Shown here one piece after another: positions 14,868 to 15,132 of a stretch of DNA of 40,000 nucleotides. Numbering within the stretch: position 1 is the stretch's first letter; each line of letters opens with the position of its first letter. The DNA is from Peptococcaceae bacterium. GTDB taxonomy: Bacteria > Bacillota > DSM-12270 > Thermacetogeniales > Thermacetogeniaceae. The notes below the pieces were generated by a model, which saw only the letters and a program-made list of their open reading frames with translations, searched no databases and was not told the origin of the DNA. Location: NCBI GenBank assembly GCA_023249405.1, contig JAHFCR010000001.1, positions 1 to 40,000 on the forward strand, given 5' to 3'. The position numbers and the translations under genes were made by a program.

Positions 14868-15132
14868 GGAAACTTACTTCAGGTGGGGTTTTAGCCCCCC
14901 CTGAAGTTTAGTTGACTTATCCCGCCGGGGTACCCGCTCTAGCGGGTCGGGCACCCGGCTTAGCGCCACTTGCCTATGCCGTTTTCCGAAGTGCAGGCGT
15001 GCGCGCCCGTCAAGCGGGCACCCGCAGCCTGAAGCGAAGCTTCAGAGCCTGCGTTCGGGCCGGGCGTTAGTCCGGATACGGCGCTCCTACCTAAGAAGCA
15101 GGAGTCTTAGCGGCGGTTAGTCATCGGATAAA
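14868..15132 (+). repeat. Modular hairpin-rich intergenic element, copy 2 (265 nt, expanded variant)
   Basis: Same block order as copy 1. It carries extra stem-loops after the first hairpin (14909-14950) and an insert of about 70 nt (14988-15057) containing the perfect hairpin ctgaagc-gaa-gcttcag (15029-15045). The 3' block gctcct..aagaagcaggagtcttagcggcggttagtcatcggataaa is nearly identical to copy 1. Confidence 0.85.

Follow-up and report, generated by a model that had tools for sequence, protein, structure and literature searches.

A non-autonomous mobile DNA repeat as the probable origin of a structured spacer upstream of a folate operon in a Thermacetogeniaceae bacterium

The 40,000-nt stretch analysed here (the window; Peptococcaceae bacterium, contig JAHFCR010000001.1, positions 1 to 40,000) contains, at 14868-15132 between fhs and an HD-domain gene, 265 nt of hairpin-rich sequence that share conserved blocks with a second, shorter copy in the folB-folK spacer. 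What kind of element gains whole stem-loops while its flanking blocks are kept? The initial annotation proposed a structured RNA with variable expansion domains, possibly acting on the neighbouring HD/folP operon. The answer reached here is that 14868-15132 (copy 2) is probably a copy of a mobile DNA repeat that is non-autonomous and carries no genes; it is the largest variant compared and has the layout of IS200/IS605 derivatives known as palindrome-associated transposable elements (PATEs).

The boundaries of copy 2 were provided by relatives. The FolK protein of the source is 87 % identical to its orthologue in the metagenome-assembled genome (MAG) SPRUCE 354, and DNA of the window between 34.5 and 40 kb is ~86 % identical to one contig of MAG SPRUCE 237; judged by these identities, the source organism is a Thermacetogeniaceae relative. 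The orthologous fhs-HD spacer of SPRUCE 354 (loci L156/L157) reads ccgcaATAAActtcaacc; it lacks the element and displays a single ATAAA. The window reads ccgcaATAAA, then the element from GGAAACTT to CATCGGATAAA, then cttcaacc, which amounts to a precise 265-nt insertion relative to the empty spacer. A further relative (L158) is likewise empty, with cgcaATAAA followed by unrelated spacer. The start and end first proposed from the window alone, 14868 and 15132, are exactly these insertion boundaries. Because ATAAA stands on both sides, the element, supported by the empty site, by covariance-model matches and by alignment, may equally be written 14863-15127. On the minus strand, which is the coding strand of all genes surrounding copy 2, CCGATGAC forms its left end and AAGTTTCCTTTAT its right end. 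Two other contigs (L160 and L161) carry a different subfamily in the same spacers, in opposite orientation and at other positions.

The two ATAAA pentamers turned out to be of different nature. Read on the minus strand, members of the family display a T-rich pentamer, usually TTTAT, followed by the element proper, 5'-CCGATGGCTAACCGCC...H2/H3...GGATAAG-H1-TCC-TTTAT-3', where H1 to H3 denote the helices described below; their ends read CCGATGGCTAACC... and ...TCCTTTAT, the right end also ...GTTTCCTTTAT. In copy 2 the target pentamer is ATAAA on the plus strand, TTTAT on the minus strand (15128-15132), and abuts the CCGAT end. Across the family this flank, which follows CATCGG, varies: ATAAA in 25 of 92 copies, ATAAT in eight, then GTAAA, GCAAA, AGAAA, ATCAA and others, T-rich on the minus strand. 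The terminal pentamer borne by the element itself (TTTAT on the minus strand, 14863-14867) is constant within subfamilies as ATAAA, GTAAA, ATCAG or ATCGG, and [A/G]TAAA occupied the H1 end in 42 out of 42 scored copies. The 10 nt that flank the element past H1 were without specificity. In near-consensus copies the two pentamers disagree at two to three positions (for example ATAAA/AACAA, ATAAA/GGGAA and ATAAA/GCAAG), and therefore no target duplication is involved. Terminal inverted repeats are also absent: when the first 30 nt of copy 2 are set against its reverse-complemented last 30, only nine of 30 positions match. The element thus inserts immediately 3' of the pentamer, with neither target duplication nor terminal inverted repeats. 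An insertion at TTTAT looks like a 5-bp direct repeat because the right end of the element is itself TTTAT, and head-to-tail tandems occur because an element ending in TTTAT makes a new target behind itself.

A classical miniature inverted-repeat transposable element, mobilised by a DDE transposase and duplicating a preferred 5-bp target ATAAA, would account for ATAAA on both sides of copy 2, of copy 1 and of 25 out of 92 members, as well as for the single ATAAA of the empty site. It would not account for the lack of terminal inverted repeats, for pentamers differing at two to three of five positions in many near-consensus copies, or for nested copies with CTGAT on one side and GTAAC on the other; nor can duplication leave one pentamer constant and the other variable. 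This explanation was already disfavoured and is given hardly any credence here.

The conserved part of the element folds. RNAalifold applied to 30 diverse cores returned four helices: H1, a 5' hairpin; H2, a long-range helix (GGCTTAGCGCCACT / AGTGGCGGTTAGCC); H3, located inside H2; and H0, a closing helix (TTATCC / GGATAA). Paired cells amounted to 93 % against 85 % in shuffled alignments, 19 pairs were changed on both sides against 11, and the covariation score was 0.28 against 0.14, a value reached in none of 500 shuffles; slid controls scored 0.03-0.08. The fold is real and strongly supported by covariation. Single-sequence folding was equally good on both strands (z = -4.7 and -5.4), and the minimum free energy did not identify the strand because H2 is replaced by a competing CCGCCG/CGGCGG helix and the two strands fold alike.

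In copy 2, H1 (AAACT.ACTTCAGGTGGGG / CCCCCCCTGAAGT..AGTT) spans 14870-14913 and comprises 13 pairs, 11 of them with compensatory double changes. It begins 7 nt from one terminus while the composite H2/H3 hairpin begins 5 nt from the other, and compensatory changes support both. Between them, the guide-like internal segment GACTTATCC (14914-14922) complements either terminal region; together with GGATAA at 15126-15131 it makes up H0, and its pairing with the H1-side pentamer displays double changes at three of four pairs. The 5' strand of H2, GGCTTAGCGCCACT (14957-14970), pairs with 15109-15122 through 12 pairs, with 99 % of cells paired and purine-pyrimidine covariation at three pairs. H3 (CTCCTACCT-AAG-AAGCAGGAG, 15084-15104) has five pairs, all with double changes across the family. 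The 3' strand of H2, AGCGGCGGTTAGTC, together with the terminal ATCGG (15109-15127), is the most conserved block of the family.

Most of the remaining length of copy 2 consists of hairpins added to this core. Addition 1 (14923-14956) places two small GC hairpins in the H0/H2 junction instead of the AGG of the minimal core, as indicated by a graded series (L124, L043/L102, L094/L032, copy 2) and by insert-site statistics. Block TGCCTATGCCGTTTTCC (14971-14987) constitutes, with the block C hairpin module GGCCGGGC-GTTA-GTCCGG (15054-15083), the H2/H3 junction expansion also found in copy 1 (12361-12407); the block C pattern matches copies 1, 2 and 4 of the window and 35 genome loci. Within this expansion lies addition 2 (14988-15053), the helix GCAGGC/GCCTGC around CTGAAGC-GAA-GCTTCAG. 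Shorter versions occupy the same site in L129 and in L032/L037, and copies of SPRUCE 237 carry a homologous insert with compensatory changes. Its third-level hairpin (15001-15025) was found in copy 2 only, among the copies aligned.

The hairpins first read from the sequence are present as described: CCCGCCGGGG at 14921, CCCGCTCTAGCGGG at 14933 and GCCCGTCAAGCGGGC at 15005, with GCAGGC at 14993, GCCTGC at 15047 and CTGAAGC-GAA-GCTTCAG at 15029-15045. A few details need correction. The segment 14909-14950 does hold extra hairpins, but its first 14 nt, TAGTTGACTTATCC, belong to the family core and the real addition is 14923-14956; copy 1 lacks these 14 nt because of a 17-nt deletion. The 51-nt 3' end, described as almost base for base identical to copy 1, is homologous but only ~84 % identical, with one gap; several of the differences keep the stems paired.

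When 92 distinct copies were aligned to the covariance model of the family (R1), inserts of at least 6 nt were located in the H1 loop (17 copies), the H0/H2 junction (5), the H2/H3 junction (1) and the H3 loop (16), and none was found within a helix. Copies 1 and 2 carry block C expansions that, by sequence, also fall at the H2/H3 junction, though the model aligned only one copy there. The proposal that whole helices are gained at fixed positions between preserved blocks was thereby borne out, and the accompanying question of where the inserts sit in the consensus fold received a uniform answer: loops and junctions. The strands of H2 are separated by 36-44 nt in the majority of copies; the separation is 86 nt in copy 1 and reaches its maximum, 151 nt, in copy 2. 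The copies form a nested series, from the minimal core (L124) through forms with a junction hairpin (L043, L102, L094), with block C (copy 1) and with the GCAGGC/GCCTGC domain (L129, L032), to the form with the inner hairpin 15001-15025; with inserts confined to a pair of terminal loops and a pair of junctions, this series has copy 2 as its largest member. The extra stem-loops are hairpin modules that were added at loop and junction positions of the H2/H3 domain, leaving conserved helices undisturbed, and that are inherited by subfamilies elsewhere. Expanded forms are found again in other genomes, at loci unrelated to these, and are therefore to be regarded as propagated subfamilies and not as local accidents. 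A 45-nt hairpin sub-module, CTCCGCAT-tcttcag-GCCGGGC-tgtaa-GCCCGG-ATGCGGAG, was also observed in four SPRUCE 237 copies (L006, L014, L012 and L017). It is related to block C, occurs as zero, one or two tandem units near H3 and inverted at the H2/H3 junction, and may represent a second-order unit, a repeat inside the repeat.

Does such a fold denote a functional RNA? Gain and loss of helices between kept flanks had been read as typical of one, but mobile hairpin repeats show them too, along with compensatory changes, and bcr1 is described in these terms (PMC3184786). A family of structured non-coding RNAs whose expansion domains vary, and which act in cis on operons such as HD-folP, would be consistent with the covariation-supported multi-helix fold, with expansions restricted to loops and junctions, with several copies that finish 10-40 nt before a ribosome-binding site and start codon, with plus-strand G-U cells slightly above A-C cells, and with the reported transcription of the analogous bcr1 (PMC3184786). 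Close relatives, however, possess the same operon without the element, and the orientation relative to flanking genes is random, copies 1 and 2, when read with H1 first, being antisense to the fol genes. Tandem, nested and truncated copies occur, and the genes next to the copies share no common function. The Rfam 15 scan, at gathering scores over the whole window and at E up to 10 on both element regions and both strands, returned only terminator-like or chance matches, with no Rfam match to the element at E up to 10. The cis-acting RNA is therefore considered very improbable. Of the earlier suggestion, the position between the fhs terminator and the HD/folP operon stands, while an action on that operon is not supported. 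Tetrahydrofolate, ZTP and c-di-GMP riboswitches, which the fol/fhs context and a GGDEF gene near copy 4 brought to mind, were rejected in view of Rfam, of orientation and of the empty site.

Dispersal speaks for a repeat. An exact-pattern scan of species-representative genomes yielded 35 loci with block C, 33 of them in SPRUCE 237 (Thermacetogeniaceae), where many lie within 100 nt of a contig end; a pattern scan for the 3' block matched at least 120 metagenome stretches. Hosts were Thermacetogeniaceae MAGs and diverse anaerobe metagenome contigs, and the copies span 34 % to 62 % GC, although the search pattern itself selected for the core block. No match was obtained by the exact-pattern scan of viral contigs or by blastn of the core against 72,556 PLSDB plasmids, and looking for its sequence as text in the literature gave nothing of relevance. 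The shortest copies define a minimal core of ~130 nt, ATAAAGGAAACTTACTTCAGGTGGGGTTTTAAACCCCACCTGAAGTTTAGTTGACTTATCCAGGGGCTTAGCGCCACTTATCTCCCGCTTAAGAAGTGGGAGTCTTAGTGGCGGTTAGCCATCGGATAAA. Copies are intergenic, only three of 112 non-identical copies lying inside called open reading frames (ORFs); in this set the downstream gene was co-oriented in 52 cases and opposed in 45, and the upstream gene in 43 and 45, respectively. Genes neighbouring the copies displayed no common function. Head-to-tail tandems sharing CATCGG-ATAAA were found in L122, L130 and L144, and nested copies were inserted within the H1 stem of another subfamily, with GTTAC or GTTCT as flank and CTGAT as end. L149 contains a paralogous empty/filled pair.

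Other comparisons between loci were less clear-cut. The near-identical contigs L160 (element at 5836-5971) and L161 differ by presence and absence of a type-1 element in the folB-folK spacer. They were rejected as a second empty/filled pair because L161 retains CCGAGG, the first 6 nt of the element end; it also differs in its number of CCTCTGA heptads, which suggests imprecise loss, and on both counts looks like a deletion derivative. A synteny comparison of the window with L038/L063 was unusable because the flanks diverge. Over the 217 nt compared, the element and its 3' flank are identical in L010 (JBEKCL010000162, a 'Dehalococcoidia' MAG) and L001 (SPRUCE 237), an identity across two phyla that is probably a binning error.

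Which enzyme could move the repeat? Elements of the IS200/IS605 family have neither inverted repeats nor target duplications, and their insertion point lies 3' of a motif of four or five nucleotides, TTGAT, ATTAT and TTTAT being examples (PMC4227781, PMC7290912). They display hairpins at both ends and specificity at one end only, and their PATE derivatives are mobilised in trans (PMC4227781, PMC7290912, PMC10055086); ISGst2, whose adjacent motif is TTTAT, has gene-less PATE-like relatives (PMC10055086). By analogy, the repeat would be mobilised in single-stranded, folded form, a transposase of the Y1/HUH type acting in trans to do both the cutting and the rejoining. The minimal unit of the family holds two hairpin domains close to its ends, H1 and the composite of H2 and H3, linked by TTATCC, which is complementary to the termini. 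GGATAAG beside H1 is complementary to the terminal TTTAT and changes together with it in three subfamilies (ATCGG/CCGAT, ATCAG/CTGAT and ATAAG/TTTAT); in this pairing, double changes affect three of four pairs in few sequences, 76 % of cells are paired and L048 is an exception. Furthermore, the last base of the target pentamer, on the minus strand, matches that of the terminal pentamer in seven of eight cases against seven of 34 (Fisher p = 0.0008). This end co-variation, the co-change of GGATAAG and the nested GTTAC/CTGAT copies would fit a shared recognition of the two cleavage sites.

Several observations weigh against this attribution. No cognate transposase was detected by tblastn in the window and in 35 SPRUCE 237 loci (~230 kb), the Y1 TnpA query being approximate. 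The only tnpA seen on a repeat-bearing contig (IS605, L053/L140) has unrelated ends. No autonomous copy was encountered among ~110 distinct copies, the distance between H2 strands never exceeding 151 nt. Nested copies of one subfamily display unlike target (GTTAC) and terminal (CTGAT) pentamers. IS200/IS605 elements are reported to be oriented with the direction of replication (PMC5371812), whereas here the inferred top strand was the G-rich one in just 42 of 84 copies of the core type and 16 of 38 of type 1, local GC skew being an indirect proxy; nor is there a bias with respect to gene direction. The four copies of the window, where the minus strand is the G-rich one, do all follow the replication prediction, but four are too few to count. 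Wobble counts do not favour the minus strand either, the plus strand displaying 114 G-T against 56 A-C cells; without one H0 pair the counts are 76 and 51, so that the excess stems largely from this pair, which involves flank bases. With no transposase detected and no link between orientation and GC skew, the enzyme is only inferred.

Copies reduced to a solo end (L055, L067, L069, L077 and L078) abut host sequence, and the neighbouring genes read were host genes and not transposases. The IS605-type element of L053/L140 (~9760-7940, minus strand, on a peat contig) is complete, with a tnpA of 133 aa and a tnpB of 365 aa. Its right-end stem CTCCCACTTCTAAG...AAGTGGAGAG (hairpin CTCCCACTT...AAGTGGAGAG) resembles H3 of the repeat.

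Part of the same evidence could be accommodated by site-specific recombination of a small circular intermediate by a tyrosine or serine recombinase, in the manner suggested for bcr1. The joined ends, CATCGG-ATAAA-GG, would pair with TTATCC and stack on H2/H3, giving either an attC-like folded attachment site or a double-stranded one. An orientation independent of GC skew and of gene direction is what a mechanism uncoupled from replication would give, and the agreement between the last base of the target and that of the element end is predicted by an overlap-identity rule. The junction-spanning H0, the spacer, H2 with its tolerated mismatches and the variable terminal structure resemble their counterparts in attC sites (R box, spacer, L box and terminal structure, respectively). 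Reviews describe bcr1 mobility as site-specific recombination-like (PMC6542083, PMC6199540). Specificity, however, is found on one flank only, the 10 nt on the other side being random. The element-side pentamer never adopts the target sequence, against a multi-base overlap resolved from heteroduplex, and nested copies have target and end pentamers that disagree at the last two positions. Copies reside in housekeeping spacers, and no GTTRRRY core, cassette array or integrase was seen, no search having been aimed at intI. Recombination of this kind is judged unlikely, and a PATE-like element remains the preferred reading.

A further proposal, modelled on what is reported for some PATEs, concerns the RNA. 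TTTAT is a known TnpB adjacent motif (PMC10055086), and the core might encode an omega RNA-like guide scaffold used in trans by a TnpB/IscB-type nuclease with this motif. The RNA would then run out of the TTTAT end into the flank, and the expansions might be true RNA expansion segments. The strongly covarying fold and the presence of the core block in hosts of 34-62 % GC (a pattern-selected range) are compatible with this proposal, which we hold to be improbable; if true, it would represent a widespread, undescribed scaffold family in anaerobic Firmicutes.

Among known repeats, PATEs (those of Geobacillus stearothermophilus ISGst and of Halanaerobium hydrogeniformans) are similar in being short, non-coding and multi-copy, with imperfect hairpins near both ends. 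They too lack terminal inverted repeats and target duplications, display one-flank specificity 3' of a T-rich pentamer and are presumed to be mobilised in trans (PMC10055086, PMC7290912, PMC4227781). They differ in that, for the present repeat, a parental insertion sequence or Y1 transposase with matching ends was not found in the loci scanned and orientation does not track GC skew. Its own end is also the preferred target pentamer, and its left-end hairpin is an unusually long composite (H2 and H3) that tolerates large modular expansions.

The group A repeat bcr1 of the Bacillus cereus group, compared by description only, is of similar size (~155 bp against 130 bp here) and flanked by TTTAT, the same pentamer on the other strand. 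It also has two independent stem-loop domains kept by compensatory changes, a variable and non-conserved genomic distribution and a non-autonomous nature (PMC3184786, PMC6542083, PMC6199540). In contrast to the repeat described here, which occurs in Thermacetogeniaceae and other anaerobe metagenomes, bcr1 is reported to be restricted to the B. cereus group, and its flanking repeat is described as a duplication, which the flanks of the present family are shown not to be.

BOX elements and bacterial interspersed mosaic elements (BIMEs) are intergenic, highly structured mosaics of modular units between conserved end modules. The repeat resembles BOX of Streptococcus pneumoniae and the proteobacterial BIMEs and REPINs (hairpin-forming arrangements of repetitive extragenic palindromes, REPs; PMC3116915) in its modularity, the block C hairpin and other stem-loops occurring in zero to three copies at fixed positions; it differs in its two unlike end hairpins, which take the place of one REP in inverted copies, and its one-sided pentamer target, and in lacking a GTAG/CGTC tag or a 20-40-nt REP unit. 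REPs and REPINs are built on a palindromic unit of 20-40 nt with a GTAG or CGTC tag, often in inverted pairs (PMC3733652). The unit here measures 130-265 nt, contains two different hairpins and has untagged ends, in agreement with the initial annotation, which had set the element apart from simple REPs.

An integron attC site consists of an R box, a spacer, an L box and a variable terminal structure. The repeat shares with it an imperfect long hairpin, a terminal helix of 6-7 bp over the recombination point, an unpaired spacer, a mismatched second helix and a variable terminal structure. It is distinguished by the lack of GTTRRRY/RYYYAAC cores, ORF cassettes and arrays, by its dispersal in Firmicutes housekeeping spacers and by its ends, CCGAT... 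and ...TTTAT.

Covariance-model search of the window returned four copies and no others, all in the same orientation (minus strand). Copy 1 (12286-12457, or to 12452) lies within the folP-folB-folK operon, in the 229-nt folB-folK spacer, and is expanded by 12361-12407 over the ~130-nt minimal core, this being its block C expansion. It shares three blocks with copy 2: 12339-12377 with 14949-14987 (87 % identity), 12378-12411 with 15054-15087 (88 %) and 12418-12457 with 15093-15132 (90 %); none of the three block patterns was matched by chance in 100 shuffles each. A deletion of 17 nt removed half of its lower H1 stem (the descending strand) and the TTATCC segment, and copy 1 is therefore probably immobile. 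In the relative L158, folB and folK overlap by 4 nt and leave no spacer, so that the copy-1 site is empty there too. The 130-nt folB-folK spacer of L156 contains only ccGGATAAAtg, possibly a remnant of an element end.

Copy 3 (29553-29620, minus strand, 47.6 bits) is a solo end of the H1 type, and the TTATCCGATA that comes after it is exactly complementary to the 3' terminus usually seen. This copy adjoins a gene for a 226-aa signal-peptide protein (29660-30340, minus strand) that has no Pfam match; this ORF encodes a secreted or membrane protein. Copy 4 (32449-32637, minus strand) is diverged but retains block C, whose hairpin displays a compensatory G-C to A-T change; it lies ~110 nt upstream of a 7TM-PAS-GGDEF diguanylate cyclase gene (32745-34316, plus strand).

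Around copy 2, fhs (15229-17010) is followed by its intrinsic terminator (15172-15190), which stands outside the element and is also present in the empty-site relatives; beyond the element come the HD-domain gene (14237-14761), folP (12888-14096), folB (12497-12874) and folK (11756-12268), all on the minus strand, then a pan-motif RNA and pantothenate genes. A TATAAT-like box (TTATAAT, minus strand) stands before the HD gene, and the insertion point lies ~25 nt upstream of it, within 14834-14867. Because the element ends in TTTAT, TTTATTGCGG, with a weak TTGCGG '-35', is restored exactly at the junction; a consensus promoter scan made no call. Copy 2 thus sits just upstream of a putative HD-folP promoter.

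Elsewhere in the window, the Rfam pan motif matched at 11620-11716 (minus strand, 37.1 bits for a gathering score of 36.2) between folK and a DUF2520 gene; in the syntenic L156, panB, panC and panD come after the DUF2520 gene. A 300-nt direct repeat (24089-24388 and 25123-25422; 72 % identity, spacing 1034 nt, followed by another common 20-mer) is probably explained by neighbouring paralogous genes. tRNA genes occur in two clusters of three, at 10-308 and 23437-23806, both on the minus strand.

The repeat is of an already known kind, the non-autonomous hairpin transposons, and constitutes a new family whose covariation can mimic that of a functional RNA; because this covariation is genuine, the family can mislead searches for structured RNAs. 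The core, boundaries, target pentamer and covariance model (R1) of the family are now defined, and the appropriate annotation for the 265-nt structured spacer that precedes the folate operon is mobile repeat, not riboswitch candidate. The family also breaks MAG assemblies, many copies lying at contig ends. The results suggest that TTTAT-flanked repeats of the bcr1 type may be one-sided, duplication-free insertions in the style of IS200/IS605. In the organism itself, any effect on the HD-folP-folB-folK operon would be incidental, copy 2 lying upstream of the putative promoter and copy 1 inside the operon transcript: with copy 1 splitting folB and folK and copy 2 near the TATAAT-like box of HD-folP, incidental effects on expression are possible.

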